DNA of 63,990 nucleotides, the filler included, from Basidioascus undulatus (Eukaryota): NCBI GenBank assembly GCA_000826855.1. It is 3 parts of 3 records of this genome, joined end to end, with 100 filler letters (N's around TTAATTAATTAA, not from the genome) between each part and the next. Parts side by side here need not be neighbours in the genome. Positions count along the whole stretch, not along the records: positions 1 to 21,476 come from JTLS01000330.1; 2 more parts are not named here. One strand, written 5' to 3'. The translations under genes and the position numbers were made by a program. The notes beneath the pieces are model-generated. The model did not search any database, was not told the origin of the DNA, and saw only the letters and a program-made list of their open reading frames with translations. Shown piece after piece: positions 16,934 to 45,016 of this stretch (positions are counted from its first letter, which is position 1; every line of letters starts with the position of its first letter).

Positions 16934-18625
16934 ATGTCGGCATTCACCGACGCCGACGCGACAGAGCTCGTCGAGACCTATGGCGCGTCCGCGATCCGAG
17001 GGGCCTGACCTCATTTGGGGTGATAGGCCGCTGGGCTGACTGGCTGGCTTGGGTGTCTGGTTGGATGGAATGAAAACAGACTTCTTGCTGAAATTTATTA
17101 TCATTGGTACGTCAGTGGCGGTGCAGGTATGGAAGATGCGGAGGAAGAAGGCTGACGGGCGGAAACAGGCGAGGCGGGGACGGGCAAGTCGTGCTTGTTG
17201 CATCATTTCGTGAACAATCAGTGTGCGTCTTCTCCTTCGTCATCCTCCTCATGCTCCCGTCTCACAACGGACATGCATCTCTCCAGTCAAAGAACGATCA
17301 ACAGTCTGTCTCCGTCTTCTCGCAGTCGTCGAAGGCAGAGGCAGGGGCGGAGCTGATAGGGGGCGATGGGCGGTGGGTGGAGCAGCATACGATCGGTGTC
17401 GAGTTCTCGTCGACACGGGTGAACATTGGGGATAAGAGCGTGAAGTTGCAGGTACGTTTCCTCTGCTTGGAGGTCTTGAGTGAAATGGCGCTGAACTGCC
17501 GGGCGCGTGAACAGCTGTGGGACACTGCCGGGCAGGAACGATTCCGGTGCGCTGTCTCATTGGGCATGTCAAGCTTGGCTTCCGGTGTTCTGATGAGGAG
17601 GAGGGATCTGCGCAGGAGTGTGACCCGATCTTATTATCGCGGCGCAGCGGGTGTCCTCCTCGTATTCGACCTGACATCGTCCGTCCACTCGCCTCCCCAG
17701 CCTCACGAGCTTTCCCTTGCTCTCCCCTGACCGCCGTCCGAATGGGAGGACAGACGAGATACGTTCAACAACCTCTCCCGATGGCTTACGGACGCCCGCG
17801 CGCTTGCCTCGCCGGACGTCGTGGTCGTGCTGGTGGGGAATAAGCTGGATCGAGAGGAGGACCGCGAGGTGGAGTACCTCGAGGCGAGCCGGTGGGCAGC
17901 AGAGAACGGTGCGTTGCGCGGTTGCCGAGAAGAAGGGTCCTGAACGGATTGGAGGATCTGATTTGGTATGGGGGCGTGGGTGTGTGGTACAGATGTCGTC
18001 TACGTCGAGACGTCGGGCATGTCAGGGGAGAACATCGAGACGCCTTTCCTCCTGGCAGCGAGGTCGATCTTGCTTAGCATCGAGAGCGGGCGATTAGATC
18101 CGGTGCGTTGGCAGGTTGATCTCGCCCAAGGAAAGGCCCGAGGCTGAAAATTGCCCTATTTCTCTGCCTATCACCTCAAATCGCACGCGCAACTCGATCT
18201 ATCCGCATACCCCTCCCATCTCTTTCCAACCGCCTCGACCAAATCTCGATATATATATTCCTCCCACTCAACCGTATTACATCTCTCCACACTGCAACGC
18301 CTCCATGTTCCCCATATTCACCACGACGTTCCTGCGCCCGCCTCCCTGGCCTCTGTCGCCCTGTCCCAACCCCTCCCAAACTCGACCCCGATCTCCGCCT
18401 CCTCGCTCGAACCCCGCCATATACCGCCGCCTTCCACCGACTTCCCCACGCGCTTCCACCTACCAGGAGAATCCCGGCTCGGGCGTGTCGTATGGCGATC
18501 GCGCCCTACGGCGCATCGGCAGCGTACGGTCTTTTGGCTGGGGGAGCAGCGCGTCGTCGTCCCGCCGGCGGGGGAGCGTGCGGCTTTCCACGCTGCTCGG
18601 CAAGGACAAGAAGCGGTGCTGTTAG
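16934..18625 (+). CDS. YPT4: Rab4/Ypt4-type small GTPase
   Basis: [68 protein letters not shown] and a C-terminal CC prenylation motif. Intron 1 (16983-17079) is GC-AG. Confidence 0.93.
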
Positions 18626-19488
18626 ACTCGCAGCTCCCCTTACTCCCTACTATCCCTCGTTCTTTCCCTTCCCTCCCTCACTGCGCTCCCTCCTTTCTTC
18701 GTCCCTCACCCCTTCCTTATCCACGCTCATATTATACACGACCTCCTACAACGCCCTCACGACTCAACGAACTTTACGACCCGCCATGCCCTTCCTCACG
18801 AGCCCCCGTCCCTCCTATTCCCCCTTCTCTTGCCTTGCCCACCCAGTGTCCCCACGCTACCTTACCGCCCCACCCACTAAACTAAGCGCCCTGTACTTTT
18901 TCCTCTTGCGCTTCCCACGCACTACCTTCTTCCTTCACTCTTACGCGCCCTGAGGGCTGCGCCGGGTCAGATATTACAGATCAGATCGTGTCGCTTATGT
19001 TTGTACTTGCACTTTTCGTTCGGGCTGTTTTACTTTGGTTGGTACCTTGCGTGTGCAGGCTTGCAAGCGTGCTTCGTGCGGGAGATGGCGGAGAGAAAGG
19101 AGAGAGGAGTGGTCGATGAACGTGTCAAACCGCCTTTCACGCCCCACGCCCTGCTTGGCCTCGGCTACCACGCGAAGCAGGAAGACGCCGGCGTACGAAA
19201 GGCAGTTCTGTCATGACTGATTTCCCCCCCTGCTGCGCAAGTCCAGAGGCAGTGAAGGTGGAACCTTCGACCCGTACCTCCGACATGCTGCGCCTCCACA
19301 TAATAATAGGGAATCTTCCATAAGCCTGGAAAAGCACCGCTGCTGCATGGATGTTGCTGAGGCCGCGACCATCATTGCTGGAGCGGGCATAGCAATCTTA
19401 CAGGACATGAGGTTGCGGGAAGGAATACTTGAGCATTTGTGAACATCCCTAATGCTGCATGCTGCCACCCCAACTAGATCCGGCTGAT

Positions 19489-21476: not shown

Positions 21477-21576
21477 NNNNNNNNNNNNNNNNNNNNNNNN
21501 NNNNNNNNNNNNNNNNNNNNTTAATTAATTAANNNNNNNNNNNNNNNNNNNNNNNNNNNNNNNNNNNNNNNNNNNN
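21477..21576. other. Artificial contig spacer N44-TTAATTAATTAA-N44
   Basis: Exactly 100 nt, with a central 12-mer giving stops in all six frames. Identical to the second spacer. Confidence 0.97.
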
Positions 21577-31274: not shown

Positions 31275-32873
31275 GACAGCGGGCGGTGCGATAAAGGGCA
31301 GCTGGAAAGCGAGCTGAGTCGACGAGATGAAGAAGACGCAAGGACGAGCCTCGCGAGGCTGAGATTTCGGACGCCGGCGTCCGACGAACTAGCCTGATCA
31401 ATCGATCATCTTCTCCGCGGACCTGTTTGACTCCGGACCAAACAGCCACACTTTTTTGGATCAAATTCATCTGTATTTCCTCAGTATTTGAGGCAGAACG
31501 GCCGGTCTACGGGGCCTCACAGCGAAACAGGCGGGCGCACTGAGCTCTTCGCCGCTCAAGTGCCTCGCCGGTTCACTTTGACAGACCTTGCCGGCGGTTC
31601 GTGTGCGCATGTGTCCAAGCCTGAGGCGTTGCTCAGGCACAACTAAAGAGTAGGCACAACGGGTCGGGCCGGAACACCGGAGCTGTCAAGGTGTTGCACG
31701 ACAGCTGCGAGCATGCGTGCAGCCAGTTTGTGCAGCCCATTTCTTTCCGACTCTTGCTCGTCTGCATGAACCTTGAGGGCGCGAACTGGCGAGAGGTCGT
31801 CGTCGACAACGGCATCGGAAGCGGCCTCCTGGAGCACCCGAATGCGAGTGCCCGTGAAAGCATGACTGTGCTGTACAGCTTACGGAGCCTGCCGGAGCGC
31901 TGCCTTCGGTCTTTGTTCATGCGGAACACGAGATATTTCGCACGAAGCAAGCGGCAGACATACTTCGTACGGACGTCCTACTGGCCAAGCCGGTCTCCTT
32001 TCCGGGGCGTTCCGCAGCGAGGCTCCATCAGCGAGGCTCCATCGGCCGTCTGCGCTTTCTGCTCAGAAGATGGCTACGTTATTTGGGCTGAGTGCATAAT
32101 TGTTTGTGGGCAGAAAAACACCAAACAGGGGAACTTTGTGTAATGAACAAGTCGCTCATGATTACTTCAATGTCGGAGAACCGCTGTGTGTGCACACTGG
32201 TGGGACGAACCGACAGATGGCCTTGACTGGCCTGGCGCGGCATTGCCTTGCGGAGGCTCTTGACGTTTCTGTCCGATAGGCCTCAACAAATTGATGACTA
32301 CTTTTCATATGCATGTGGAAAGGGCACATTCCTGATAGGACAGGACGCTGGCGTGCTGCGGGCGTGCAGCGCCAGCTCGGAACAGCCCGGCTGTCGCCAG
32401 CTCGCTGATGGTTGCCACACCGCATGGGAATCTACTTGGCCATTGGCTGCTCATTTGGAGCGAAAGAATTGATACAAGTAACTATTTCGATCCCAGTGCA
32501 GGCGGTCAAGAATCCGTCCAGCTGTGTAGCTGGGGCGTACAAACAGACTTGTCAACACGAAGGCTTTTTTCTCTCCCATATTCTTTGGGTTCAGGCGCCT
32601 TTGATCGATACAGCACTTCAAACATTCGCGAGTCGCAGAGCTGTCAGACTATTTGTCTAAACTCAGACAGCACAGTTCCGCGAAAATCAATTAATTGACG
32701 GCTCGCGCGCTTTCATTTGACGCCTGCTCATCGACGCGTCTCGACTTCCAACTTCGACTCGCGACCACCCCGCGACCACCTTCCCGCCTCAATCTTAACT
32801 TTGTATACCTACCTTTCGATCCTTACTTCCGCACACCGCACTTGAACGCCGCTGCTGCATCACGCGCACTGCC

Positions 32874-35800
32874 ATGGTGGACGACGATGGGTCGGTCAGC
32901 GCGCCCGAGTACACGCGGCGCGAGATCTACCATGAGCCGATCGTGAACCTCGTCGCGGCGTTGGGAGGAATGGAAGTGGACGAAGGCCCGGACGGACAAC
33001 CGCTGGAGGTGTACAAGTTGGGTGACGAGTGTCTCGGTATGTCTGTCTTCCTGATTAGGAGGCGACGCGGAGAGCGAGGGCGGCAGCGACTCACCCGGCG
33101 GCGGAACAGGTTGTTTGAAGGACCTCAAGAAGTTCTGGCGCAAGGACGACACGGACGAGTCGCGCACCGTAGCCCGAATCCTCTACGAGACGAACGTGCT
33201 CCATAACGACCTCATCCCCATCCTCAAGATCACCGCTGGCCGCGGCGAGGTCGGCGACCGTATCGCTCTTGCAGCTGGTGCGTGTCCTACAACTCCCCAA
33301 CCTCAGCGCGTGATCTGATGATATCCTCCCGCTTTCCCCCCACGCGTAGCCGACCTCATGGGGAGCTTTACCTGGCCGATCTCGCTCTCCGAGGAGCTGC
33401 AGGAGCTGGCGGAGGCTGAGGAGAAGCCCGACACGCTGCCGGAGCTCACGACGCTCATTCAGGCGCAGTACGAGTACAAGCAGGCCATCCTCCACGCGGG
33501 TGCAATCGACACGCTCTTCACCCATCTGCTCCTCCCGCGTCTCTACAAGACACGAATGTGCGTTTTGTTCGGCGGCTGGGTGGATGTGAGGATGCGGAGC
33601 TGATCGGTTGGCGGGTCTTGACGATGCAGGGAACGCTCGGAGCGGGACAACCAGGTCATCATACTCATCATGCATATCTTCCGTAACCTCGCGGCGGTCA
33701 AAGAGCCTGTCGACCGGCCTGGACTGCAGGTGCGTTCCAGACCATGCCTATCTTGCACCCCGATCGAGGCTCACATTCCGGGCGTGTGTGAGAAGTCGGA
33801 CCTCATCATCCAGTTCGAGGCGTACAACGTCTTCGACACCCTCGCGACGATCGCATCCTCGTCCGACAAAGTCGAGTTCAACCATCTCAACGTCCTCGCG
33901 CTCGAGATATTCCATCTCCTCTATCGCGGCGTCGTTCCGGAGGACCTACTGAAGGAGCCAGGCAAAGTACGTCCTGGTAGATATCACATGCTTGGGTCAT
34001 AGAGCTGATGTGCTGACGTTTGAAACAGGCTCCATCGGACAATCTCTCGAAGCTGCTGGCGATGGAGGAGAATCAGAAGCGTGCGGAGGCGCGCAAAGGC
34101 GTCTCGCGGCATAGTCGCTTTGGTACGACTATCAGTGTCGTCGCGGTATGTCTTGGGCTGCCGTCATCTGCGATGCTCCAAGTGTTCTGACACTTTGCAC
34201 ACTGGCTCAAGGGCCAAGACCGCTATGTTATCACGAAGCAGCGCGGAATCTCCGCCTCGACGGACAAGACGATGGACCTCATCAAGAAGAAGAAGTGGAC
34301 GAAGCCCAAGAACCAGGTACGACTCACCGACCTTGCAGCTGGGGTCCCCGCGCATTGACGCCACAACGCACCCAAAGGACGAGACTGTCTCGGTGGTGCT
34401 TTCACCTCCGGCCATCACTGCCCTCCGCGAGCTCGCCAACGTCTTCCTCAGCTCCTGCTTCAACAGTGCGCTCCCCCTTCGCTCCCCTCCCACCTCTCAT
34501 ACCTCGCCGCTGACTCCCCGCCTCGCGCCCTCCTCCATTCAGCGTTCTTCGCCACGCTCCTCAAGGACATCCGAATGGAGCGCGCGAAAGTGCGCGAGTC
34601 GGACAAGGCGCGCTTCCTCCACCTCTGCGGCTTCTTCCTTCGCTACTTCCTCGCGTGCGTCAAGTGGGACCGCGAGCACGGCGTCGACCGCAAGAGCGAC
34701 GCGGGGCGCGACTTTGACCTCATCGCCGAGATGGTCGAGACGGGGAGCGTCGGGTTCGTGACGGCGCGCATGAAGATTACGATCGACGACAAGGTTAGTC
34801 TTTTCAATCAAGTCTTGCACCGGACCCGCAAGGCGCTCGACTGACACAATCTGCTGTCGCCAGCCTCCGTCGTGGAAGGAGCTGCACGCCGGCATTGACT
34901 GTTTCACCCAAATCGTGCGACCCTGCTCAACTTTCTGCTCTGTTGGCGTACGCTGGGACGGGATCTGATGCTACTGTCGTTGTTGTTTTCAGCTGCTCGT
35001 CGTCGACGCCATGGCCGTAACAGGCGAGGAGGAATATGTCGAGGCTGCTGAGATCCTCCAGGACCAGATCTACTACAACGGCGACGTGCTCGACCTCGTC
35101 GTGCAGGTCGTGAGCAAGTACAAGGAGCAGAGCATCAAGTCCGTTCCTGTTCTCTTTGCAGTCCCCCTGAAGCTGTGAACCGCGAATGCTGATGAACGTT
35201 GGGCTAGATACCTCGACTCGGTCATTCACCTCGCCTATGTCATCCTCCGCATGCTCGAGAAGTACAGCAAGACGAAGGCCTTCATGTTCATCCGCAAGCG
35301 GCGGGCGAAGCGGAACAAGAGGAAGAATGGTGCGTCGACTTATCCCCAGCCTCAAAATCGCGCTTGTTCGCTGACGCATACTCGGGCTCCCTGTCCTCGC
35401 TTACAGACCAGTCGGACAAGGCGACGCAGGACGTGGAAAACCTCATCCCGGACGCCGAGGACGAGGACGACGCTGGGGCGGACCGCGAGGCGCCGAGCTT
35501 CGCCGAGCACAAGTTTACGTTCGCGTCTTTCGAAGGGGTCAGTCCAGCCGCTTCGCCATATGTTGTTGTTACTTCCCGAGCGCTCACACTTTCCGATTCA
35601 CAGCGGTTCGCCAACGAGAACGTCGTGCAGACGTGCTTGCAGTACCTCCAGCGCCATCAAGAGTTCGAGGAGCCCGAGCAGCTCAAGCGTGTCGTCGGGC
35701 TCCTGCACCGCGCTGCTGTCAAGGCGCAGGCGGAGGGCTTGTTCTTCAAAGTGTGTTTTCCCGAGAATATTTGTCGTTCCGACCTTGGTCATGTTCGGCT

Positions 35801-41674: not shown

Positions 41675-42967
41675 CTACTCCTCCCCATCCTCCCCATCCT
41701 CCCCATCGCCCTCATCCTCCTCTCCCTGCGCGCTCGGCCCCTCCGTAGTCATCAAATCGTTGATCCTGCAGTCCGCCATCGCACCACATGAGCCAACCTC
41801 GTCGGAAACAGCCAGTGAGAGAGAGACGCAGAGAGGTAGGGAGGGAGACGACAGACGCACAGGTGCACGAACGGCCGCATCACGCCAATCACGCCCGCGA
41901 CCTTGTCCGCAAAGTCGGGCTGGACGACGTCGGCATCTTTGAAGCTGCACACTCCTTCCCACGTACTCAGCAATGCACAAGTGGGAAATGCGAGAAGGTA
42001 AAGGGGGAAAGGAGACGCACTGGTACATCACGACGAAGTTGCGGAGCTTGAGGAGGTCGATGTCCCTATCCACATCCACCACGCGTCCGGATCAGTCCTG
42101 CCCCTTCCCACTTTTCCCCCAAAGCAACGAGAAACGAGGGCGCACTTGTGGTTCTTGTCGAACCCCTTGGGCGCGACTTTCTGTGTCCCTCCCCAAGCCC
42201 GCGCCGATCAACACCAACCAAGCAAGCAAGCAAGGAGGGGAGGGGTGGGGAAGACGCACCAGCTCCCCCTCGTGCCCAAAGACATTGCACGGCTTGCCCT
42301 TGCCCTTCGCGCCCGGATTGGGTTCCCCAAAGTGCTCGACGAACGCCGGGGCGGAGATGGTTGAACGGAAGGGGGTGGCGTCAGTCGTTAGGTGATGCCT
42401 TCGGAAGGAGGTACGGGCTCAGTGGGGCAGGAGGGGAGAGTGGGGAAGGAAAGGGAGAGGGAGGAGCGGGAGGACCAGGGACGGAGGGAGGATGTACCGA
42501 ATCTGGGCGAGCTCGTCCTTCCCCGCTCCCCATTTTCCGCCGGCGATCAAGCTCTTGTCGCCCGGCTGGACTGCGGGAAAATCCTGGAGAGTCAGTATGA
42601 TGCAGGCGCAGGCCGTAGGGAAGGGGGACGGGAGGAAACGCACTGTGCCTGTTTTCCACGCAAACCCGCTCTCAGCCTCTCCCGGGATCCCGGACCCAAC
42701 TCCCAAACTCACATGTAGTCTGCCCACCTTCCCTCTGCGTCAGGTACTCTTCAACAAAAGCAGCAGAAGCGAAAGACGGGGAGAGGGAACGCACACCCCG
42801 CAAACACCCCCTTCCTCCCGCTCCTGCTCAGGCTGGCGGAAAAGTTCTTCTTGTAAGGCGTGCGGTCGTTCGAGAAGCGAATGTCGCGCGCCAGCCGGTG
42901 CACGAGGTCGCGCGAGGGGAGGTAGGGGAGGTCGTCATCCGCCTGTGCGGGGGGTTGAGTGAAGTGG
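41675..42967 (-). CDS. DUF2461 (TIGR02453-like) protein, 5' end in the gap
   Basis: ARDIRFSNDRTPYKKNFSAS, QPGDKSLIAGGKW, KDELAQIR, PRGFDKNH..DIDLLKLRNF, VMRPFVHLINDLM and an acidic tail. Confidence 0.85.
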
Positions 42968-43067
42968 NNNNNNNNNNNNNNNNNNNNNNNNNNNNNNNNN
43001 NNNNNNNNNNNTTAATTAATTAANNNNNNNNNNNNNNNNNNNNNNNNNNNNNNNNNNNNNNNNNNNN
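42968..43067. other. Artificial contig spacer N44-TTAATTAATTAA-N44
   Basis: Same 100-nt structure as 21477-21576. Confidence 0.97.
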
Positions 43068-43186: not shown

Positions 43187-45016
43187 ATGATCGCCTCCGC
43201 CGTCGCCCTCGCCGGCCTCGTCAGCTTCGCCTCTGCCCAGGGCGTTGCGACCACTTATCCCGGCGTCCTTCCCAGCGGAAGTACGTGATATTTCGGCATT
43301 CAAAAAGAACGGCATTCACGGCTGACAAGCGCATCCATCCCCCCCCTCGTCCCCATCTCGTCCCCCTGCCCGTCTCGTCACCCCTTCCGTCTCCCTCTCT
43401 CTTTCCTCTCTTCTCCCTCGAAAAACAGCAATGGGCCCAACGAACCCGCCTAAGGCAACGGAGGGCACCCCGATCAACCAGGAGTCCGAGGCTCGTCTCG
43501 TCTCCCTGAATAGCGTTGATGTATGTCAACCCTCTGGCGGTCTGAAGCGGCCGCGGCGAGCTGACCGCAAGTTCGGCACGTCTCCAGGACTTTTGCCTGT
43601 TTGGTCCCAAGGAGCCCGGGCACACCATCGGCGACACCGAGGCGGAGCAGGTTGCGTGGTGCACGCAGCCCCGCAACAACGCTCGTGTCATTCCCGACGG
43701 CACCATCACCGCCGCGCACTTCGTCAAGACGCCCTTCTACGTCCAGATCCAGGGCTTCGGCGACTTCACCAAGATCGTCAGTCGCCCAGCTTTGTCATCT
43801 TGTCCATGGCATCCGAGCTCTGACGTCTTCGCTCTCTTGATGCGATCAGGGTATCACGGAGGGCGACTACGGTGGGGAGCTCGACCCTCACGGTGCGACC
43901 AACAAGGGTAACCCCATCGGTGGCAACGTCACCTCGAACGTGTCCGGTACGCTTCAGTACAGCGTCGAAGGATTTCGGTGGCTGTTCCTGACCTGCCCTC
44001 ACATTCAATGCAACGCTAGGCGAGGACGTTTCCTACCAGGAGTGGATGGTGCGGCGCATAGTGCTCATTCCGCTCTTGGCGCTCCAAGCTTGACCGCTCC
44101 ACTCCCTTGCACATCTTCTTACAGGAGTTCATCTCGTACGAGCAGTTCTGCCTGCGTATCTGCACGGCCGCGAACGAGACCTGGAACACTGGCGTCATGT
44201 GCGAGCACAAGGTGGGCTTCCTTGTTCTCGGGTTTGAAGGTCTTCCGCACGGAAGCTGACTTGGCTTCGGACTGCAGCTCGACATCATGGGCTGCCAGTT
44301 CGTCATGCCTGGTGACTACACCCCGGACACCTTCGACTCTTGCGAGGGCGAGCCTGCCTACCCGCCCGGTGCGTCCCTTCGTGAGCTGCAGTCGTGCGAC
44401 TGTGCACGCTGACGTTGCCTCTCAGGTGTCTACCCTATCGAGGGTGGCGGCTACTCGACCTTCGCGCAGCGCTTCACCGGCACCTAGTAAGCTGCTGTGA
44501 TGCCGCACGAGAGCCACGGGAACGGTACTGACAAGCCTTCCATAGCACCGCTGACGGCACCGCTGTCGTCTACACTGTCGGCCAGAGTGAGTGCTCTGTA
44601 ACGGCTCTCCCTTTCACCGACATGTGCTGATGCCGCGCCCATCATTGCTAGCCGTGACGCCCACTGCTCCCTACATGGTCCCTGCTACCTCCAACTGCGT
44701 CAAGGCGACCTCCATCAAGGCCAACGGCCTCGATCTCCCTGGCGCGGCCGCCTCGACCGGCGCCGCAGGCTTGTCCTCCCCAGGCGTGCGTTCTTCCCTC
44801 GCTTCCCGGTCACCGTCAGCGTCTTCGACTGATGACTCGTCTACGTCCTCGTCTCAGGCCAAGGACTCCGTCAAGGCGTCCTCGGGCACCAAGTCCTCTT
44901 CCCAGACTGGCACCACTGAGCCCACCAGCGGCACCCTGTCGTTCGGTGCGCCTGCCCTCGGCCTCGCCGCGACCGCGGGCGTCGTAGTCCTATCCGCCTT
45001 CGCTGTTCTGCTCTGA
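43187..45016 (+). CDS. MP88-like secreted/GPI-anchored mannoprotein
   Basis: Signal peptide, RLVSLNSVDDFCLFGP, IGDTEAEQVAWCTQPRNNARVIPDGTITAAHFVKTPFYVQIQG, GGELDPHGA..GNPIGG, EWMEFISYEQFCLRIC, CEHKLDIMGCQFVMPG, a Ser/Thr-rich stalk and a hydrophobic C-terminus. Confidence 0.88.

Follow-up and report, generated by a model that had tools for sequence, protein, structure and literature searches.

The Rab4 gene and its last intron

The window, by which we mean the entire stretch of Basidioascus undulatus DNA that was analysed (63,990 nt, filler included), carries on its plus strand a Rab4 gene with the following layout:

16934..18625, plus strand: Rab4 gene, an open spliced frame of 10 coding exons encoding 243 aa with a C-terminal CC
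16934-16982, 17080-17106, 17169-17222, 17287-17303 and 17386-17451, plus strand: Rab4 exons 1-5
17515-17546, 17616-17678, 17754-17908, 17993-18102 and 18467-18625, plus strand: Rab4 exons 6-10
18103..18466, plus strand: Rab4 intron 9, the last intron of the gene, 364 nt, phase 0, GTGCGT...CCAG

Exon 8 gives a Pfam Ras match and shares 73-87% identity with its best basidiomycete homologs, and exons 9 and 10 join without insertion or deletion relative to homologs—with LDP at the junction—so that both ends of intron 9 are supported by homology. A self-trained gene model containing no branch term called the same intron, which by homology is genuine. Its 364 nt compare with 62-97 nt for the other eight introns of the gene and with a median of 67.5 nt among the 704 confident introns (of 1591 predicted) in the same genome, which figures bear out the statement of the sequence-only reading that the intron is several times longer than the local norm. 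An Rfam search with intron 9 returned no family, the sole hit (11 bits, E 4.8) lying outside the intron, and thus gave no indication of a snoRNA or other noncoding-RNA host; a mobile or repeat origin was likewise set aside, the region matching only itself in its own genome.

Elsewhere in the gene, intron 1 (16983-17079) is a GC-AG intron, GC donors making up about 4% of the predicted donors in the genome sample; exon 4 (17287-17303) is a micro-exon of 17 nt; and introns 5 and 6 are stop-free with lengths that are multiples of three, so that their retention would keep the frame.

The AG-free zone and the candidate branch sites

The internal features of intron 9 on which the argument turns are these:

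18143..18464, plus strand: AG exclusion zone, 322 nt, C 46%, G 11%, A 19%
18143..18148, plus strand: branch consensus GCTGAA, 8.3 bits, with A18147 as the predicted branch (donor distance 45 nt, acceptor distance 319 nt)
18152..18181, plus strand: pyrimidine-rich stretch just 3' of the branch motif, 73% pyrimidine, 37% U
18435..18442, plus strand: weak proximal branch candidate CACCGACT, A18440 (CCGAC), 26 nt from the intron end, 1.8 bits

The dinucleotide AG occurs in intron 9 only at 18113, 18129, 18134, 18141 and 18465—that is, four times within the 40 nt before the branch motif and then not once until the acceptor—and the 322-nt gap reported earlier between 18141-18142 and 18465-18466 is accordingly confirmed. 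From composition 7.1 AGs would be expected between 18143 and 18464; mononucleotide shuffling left such a stretch AG-free with P=0.0002 (20,000 shuffles), and none of 17 composition-matched non-coding windows of 322 nt was AG-free (median 6 AG, minimum 1). The observed-to-expected ratio of AG in C-rich non-coding DNA was 1.08 over 592 intergenic tiles and 0.85 over 250 intron tiles, and upstream of ordinary branch sites in C-rich introns it was 1.03 (98 short introns) and 1.47 (21 long ones). That composition alone does not account for the depletion of AG in the intron 9 tail is supported. Less could be made of the recurrence of the reverse dinucleotide GA, which had been counted as about eight: GA does recur, nine times in all, yet eight of these occurrences lie within CGA—the ninth being the TGA of the branch motif—and CG is itself over-represented (26 against 17 expected), so that the comparison of GA with AG is a weak argument; the matched windows served in its place.

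The gap is the longest between AGs in our sample of this genome (833,692 bases, both strands, 109,327 AGs), the next being of 303, 300 and 258 nt. Genome-wide it is not extraordinary; four non-intronic gaps in the sample have a higher expected AG count (7.3-8.3). The significance of the intron 9 gap comes rather from its ends, which are pinned to a branch consensus on one side and to a homology-supported acceptor on the other. As to the individual gaps, the 258-nt one at 42963 is an artefact of an N-padded linker between contigs—such linkers, at 21477-21576 and 42968-43067, carry stops in all frames and join separate contigs—and a 222-nt AG-free stretch at 32674-32899 (plus strand), lying mainly 5' of a predicted gene start, has the top expected AG count in the sample (8.3).

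For the branch site we used a model learned from 640 short introns of the same genome, with a consensus of about NGCTGAY, the branch adenosine of these introns having a median distance of 45-46 nt to the donor and of 21 nt to the acceptor, the latter with a 99th percentile of 45 nt. The GCTGAA that the sequence-only reading had placed near 18143-18148 lies at exactly those positions and is the top-scoring site of intron 9; a score of 8.3 bits arises by chance within the first 66 nt with a frequency of 0.025 (shuffle), and the distance of A18147 from the donor (+45) is the typical donor-to-branch spacing of this genome. Within the last 50 nt the top site is A18440, whose 1.8 bits put it among the weakest 3% of best proximal sites in short introns (21 of 640; in C-rich introns, 7 of 122). 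The stretch at 18152-18181 falls near the 90th percentile of ordinary branch-to-AG tails, and the whole tail is itself 65-75% pyrimidine. When folded, the AG-free tail was predicted to be unstructured (z +0.74; 77 of 100 shuffles folded equally well). Intron 9 presents three features of the distant-branch class: an AG-free zone exceeding the required length of at least 100-150 nt, the top branch motif at the 5' end of that zone with none good proximally, and a normal AG frequency upstream. From these sequence features, the branch point of intron 9 is probably distant, at the predicted A18147.

If, alternatively, intron 9 were a conventional intron branching at the weak CCGAC (A18440), the AG-free tract would be only the extreme of a C-rich and G-poor composition, and the GCTGAA a chance or vestigial match. 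The position of A18440 would suit this explanation, 26 nt being a typical distance from the acceptor, as would the 21 of 640 short introns whose best proximal site is no better, the scarcity of GG in the zone (1 against 4.2 expected), and the existence of equally improbable gaps outside introns. Three coincidences would be needed, however: that the proximal site be so weak (about 3-6%), that an early motif score so highly (2.5% by shuffle; 1 of 21 control introns), and that a zone with 7 expected AGs contain none. Moreover, the AG-free introns with a proximal branch are mostly A-poor (7% A in the long C-rich set), whereas the intron 9 zone has 19% A. We accordingly hold a conventional branch to be quite unlikely.

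A comparison across the genome bears on both explanations. Good donors were present in 92 long introns, of which 31 lacked YAG beyond +66, and these 31 carried the early motif only in 5 instances, the proximal motif only in 22—a preponderance that the conventional explanation can claim—both in 1, and neither in 3. The two motifs thus nearly exclude each other (Fisher p=0.0018; 0.0058 without Rab4), in a comparison where the motif-score thresholds for the two classes were chosen after an initial look at the data, some of the 31 introns may be mispredicted, and the background introns come from a purpose-built gene model in which one micro-exon was merged and the stop of Rab4 itself went undetected. 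In an annotation-free survey of tails of at least 100 nt we found no genome-wide excess, 11 of 874 donor-plus-branch pairs comparing with 42 of 2140 controls. The early-branch layout, as counted in the 834-kb genome sample, is rare in this genome and is no general trait; C-rich introns whose proximal branch is of the ordinary kind can, for their part, lack AG over 110-217 nt. The clearest further early-branch cases, on the model, are two: a second candidate within the window at 43281-43428 (plus strand), an intron of 148 nt that has GCTGAC at +45 and lacks a proximal motif, its pyrimidine-rich tail being 103 nt long; and the predicted intron at C2547 5781-5962 (plus strand), with a tail of 126 nt. 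Another predicted early-branch intron, at C2547 26257-26382 (plus strand), has a tail of 85 nt.

Ordinary predicted introns skip AGs lying more than 10 nt past the branch (60 GAG, 13 CAG, 8 TAG and 7 AAG), which counts indicate that scanning is leaky, chiefly for GAG. In the genome sample GAG acceptors are rare (1%), and GAG is often skipped after the branch site. A nested intron of 40 nt ending at the AG of 18142 was considered and rejected, since so small a unit would lie outside the usual range of intron sizes (5th percentile 56 nt), and no donor consensus would be left.

The preferred explanation, then, is that intron 9 is a U2 intron with a distant branch point. The spliceosome would pair the donor at 18103 with A18147 over the normal 45 nt, the first step proceeding as in any short intron, and a search downstream would then settle on the first AG that can be used, the acceptor 319 nt off; the C-rich tail, which is predicted to be unstructured, would be tolerated only for want of AG, with selection purging new AGs as they arise. 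We give this mechanism as a whole—the first step at A18147, the search for an AG, and the selection against AG—a probability of about 0.68, as modelled. The long-range acceptor scanning proposed earlier thereby gains computational support from the typical spacing, the top-scoring motif, the weak proximal site and a lack of AG beyond what composition explains.

The tail might also contain transcript ends, through polyadenylation within the intron after the TGA at 18145, or through a promoter at the TATATA of 18250 giving a short transcript from the ATG at 18306, in frame with exon 10. That ATG begins an open stretch of 105 codons reaching exon 10; the tail resembles the C-rich 3' UTR of Rab4 itself, and among the other long AG gaps several come after stop-like codons. 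Against transcript ends within the intron, the tail lacks TGTA, a tetranucleotide that the real 3' flank has twice and that 76% of 400-nt flanks contain; 3' flanks are not depleted of AG (0.99), which would leave the gap unexplained; all three frames are open because the zone holds no TAA, TGA or TAG past 18148; and the codon model scored the tail as non-coding in all frames, with no Pfam match, on which grounds a coding tail or an alternative start was rejected. We consider such ends very improbable. The Rab4 3' UTR (18632-18802), too, has no AG over 167 nt, against 2.0 expected, and is C-rich, far more C-skewed than 96 other sampled 3' flanks.

A predicted hairpin over the donor and the possible retention of intron 9

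Folding of the region revealed a feature that the sequence-only reading had not contained, namely a predicted hairpin between exon 9 and intron 9 that covers the donor. The segments concerned, together with a weaker and speculative alternative partner, are:

18035..18087, plus strand: exonic arm of the predicted donor hairpin, in exon 9, core 18042-18074
18097..18141, plus strand: 3' arm of the predicted hairpin, with donor positions -4..+4 and the core 18110-18137 paired, stopping a few nt before the branch motif
18478..18498, plus strand: exon 10 segment, alternative pairing with 18122-18142, -29.2 kcal/mol

In the predicted fold, intron positions 18110-18137 pair with exon 9 positions 18042-18074, and 18077-18085 is the partner of the donor (-4..+4), the pair probabilities being 0.9-1.0 for 18122-18137 and 0.87-1.0 for 18099-18106; the first 35 nt or so of intron 9 read as an inverted, imperfect copy of exon 9 sequence. 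The duplex, at -47.2 kcal/mol, ranks second among 913 donors, and with 36 cross-junction pairs it ranks first, so that, as a prediction, the stem over the donor is stronger than chance. Its energy was matched by 2 of 5000 dinucleotide shuffles, by none of 3000 synonymous recodings and by none of 912 other exon ends, and the fold of the whole region had a z of -2.5. Random exon–intron pairs reach -46 at the 0.1% level, from which 1-2 such donors per thousand would be expected; a coincidental hairpin is nevertheless unlikely, because intron 9 had been picked for another reason, and on these folding models a non-random origin of the hairpin seems fairly probable. The stem has 5 G-U among its 41 pairs, and codon usage in the exonic arm is ordinary (0.50 versus 0.53), with no sign of codon adaptation. 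If either arm was copied, the copy would be the intronic arm, because the exonic arm codes for conserved residues; most simply, the inverted copy of exon 9 would be a relic of the origin of intron 9. Were the hairpin to form in vivo, it might slow the recognition of the donor.

Stems between exon and intron sequester the 5' splice sites of MAPT exon 10, SMN2 exon 7 and yeast RPL30. The Rab4 donor is paired in a predicted exon–intron hairpin, as those sites are in theirs; unlike them, its predicted stem is long (about 36 cross-junction pairs) and resembles an inverted copy of coding sequence.

Retention of intron 9 has the consequence that had been claimed for it: the TGA at 18145-18147, inside the branch motif, becomes a stop codon, and the product of 205 aa ends in QGKARG without the CC prenylation motif. 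Transcripts in which a premature stop precedes an extended 3' UTR are typical substrates of nonsense-mediated decay (NMD), and the transcript retaining intron 9 is probably an NMD target. One may therefore ask whether the donor hairpin tunes the amount of prenylated Rab4, retention leading either to NMD or to an unprenylated GTPase of 205 aa, which proposal would be compatible with the distant-branch mechanism. The predicted fold engages the donor (-4..+4) in pairs and leaves the branch motif just beyond the stem; in Ceratobasidiaceae a Rab4 intron of about 95-187 nt lies two codons downstream; and exons with distant branch points in vertebrates are reported to be enriched in alternative splicing (PMC1431707). 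Retention removes the CC for seven of the nine Rab4 introns, however, so that the stop is generic, and this fact, together with the probable targeting of the retained transcript by NMD, leaves the switch between anchored and soluble Rab4 that the sequence-only reading had suggested without direct support. Furthermore, the shape of the hairpin is unchanged from 15 to 45 C, which excludes a thermometer, and two other early-branch candidates have no such hairpin (ranks 165 and 780 of 913). A regulated switch is thus unlikely.

The pairing of 18122-18142 with exon 10 suggests still another arrangement, in which after the first step this segment would exchange exon 9 for exon 10 (18478-18498), loop out the tail and deliver the acceptor with no long scan. 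The inverted repeat brackets the AG-free zone, and few controls attained its -29.2 kcal/mol (shuffles, 7 of 1000; other exon starts, 3 of 900; ordinary introns, 6 of 433); but the pairing with exon 9 is stronger (-37.8), that with exon 10 is absent from the predicted folds, the repeat was one among 8 inverted repeats listed, comparable pairing is lacking in three other candidates (-3 to -10 kcal/mol), and looping would make the exclusion of AG needless. We regard this delivery of the acceptor as exceedingly improbable.

Known distant branch points and a search for intron 9 in relatives

The distant-branch mechanism that we favor for intron 9 has its closest counterparts in the vertebrate exons with an AG exclusion zone (AGEZ), for which Gooding et al. 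(2006, PMC1431707) give an AGEZ of about 380 with the branch at -351 for PTB exon 11, and of about 288 with the branch at -275 for GABBR1 exon 23. Intron 9 resembles these in its size, in being AG-free over at least 150 nt with the best branch motif at the 5' end, in the normal frequency of AG upstream, and in having no good proximal site. Those exons also have a pyrimidine stretch next to the motif; in intron 9 the corresponding stretch is 73% pyrimidine within a tail of 65-75%. Intron 9 differs in being fungal and short, with a predicted branch at the normal 45-nt spacing from the donor, so that nearly all of it is tail; in being C- rather than U-rich; and in preceding a terminal exon. Human AGEZ tails are reported by Gahura et al. 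(2011, PMC3239191) to be unstructured, as the intron 9 tail is predicted to be.

The same paper describes introns of Saccharomycotina (COF1, UBC13 and K. lactis ACT) with distances from branch to 3' splice site of up to 166, 471 and 185 nt, in which stems shorten the distance and hide internal AGs, S. cerevisiae being said not to scan. Intron 9 is like these in being fungal and in the predicted separation of branch and acceptor by hundreds of bases, and unlike them in having no internal AG and a tail predicted to be unstructured (z +0.74), with no stable stem to bridge the distance. Distal branch points of consensus sequence also appear in lariat sequencing of fission yeast (LaSSO, PMC4079972), in the accessible part of which the set is described by position only; intron 9 would share with those cases a fungal host, a branch far from the 3' end and a consensus sequence. 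The earlier generalization, by which the branch points of fungi usually lie near the acceptor, holds for the present genome (median 21 nt), but long distances are already on record in Saccharomycotina (PMC3239191), as are distal sites in fission yeast (PMC4079972). A literature search, thin on subscription journals, yielded no report of AG-free distant-branch introns in basidiomycetes or of fungal Rab4 retention isoforms, and the part available of a 2026 review of fungal splicing (PMC12861292) contains nothing on AG-free distant-branch introns.

If the branch is A18147, intron 9 would serve as a small test, supplied by nature, of whether 3' splice sites are reached by linear scanning in a fungus rich in introns, budding yeast reportedly needing RNA structure; and branch or intron predictors confined to the neighbourhood of the acceptor would fail on such introns. 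As a single case with a predicted branch and without an ortholog, it carries limited weight. A far broader proposal—that basidiomycete introns are defined by the donor and a branch at about 45 nt alone, the first AG then being reached, in the manner of vertebrates and not of budding yeast, by scanning hundreds of bases without structure, with the Rab4 donor hairpin gating that step and setting the dose of membrane anchor—seems to us quite doubtful.

We looked for intron 9 in relatives by means of a metagenome scan, which gave 67 fungal loci, of which 26 were examined (L072-L096 and L099) and 21 had a visible junction (18 genomic, 3 cDNA-like or intronless). None of the 21 had an intron at the exact site of intron 9, for which reason the intron appears to be lineage-specific. 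A search with the last exon found two fragments, both without intron 9, and a read-through search found none; among the 49 proteins from a search of the profile library, none read through at the exact site. A lineage-specific intron that carries an inverted copy of the upstream exon would be a candidate trace of intron gain. Within Rab4, the start of intron 8 (17907-17924) and that of intron 9 (18101-18118) are identical at 15 of 18 positions, a likeness found in 1 of 1046 adjacent intron pairs, and a local duplication at the time of intron gain is possible on this comparison; such a duplication sits uneasily with the reading of the intron start as an inverted copy, as both cover 18110-18118.

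In the Ceratobasidiaceae, the Rab4 models break two codons downstream of the intron 9 site. The intron so revealed in Rhizoctonia, of which 105 of 111 bases were fixed by two read-throughs in different frames with no mismatch (at least 18 in shuffles), is about 187 nt long and C/T-rich; it has 0-1 AG against an expected 2.4, and a YTRA stands 9 nt before its end. Its layout is conventional, and a conserved distant branch is not supported by it. The models of this type (P0149, P0173, P0151, P0134, P0139, P0153 and P0172, those with names being from Rhizoctonia solani and Ceratobasidium) break after LDPEK and lack the CC, which breaks apparently reflect a misannotated pyrimidine-rich intron with a GT or GC donor.
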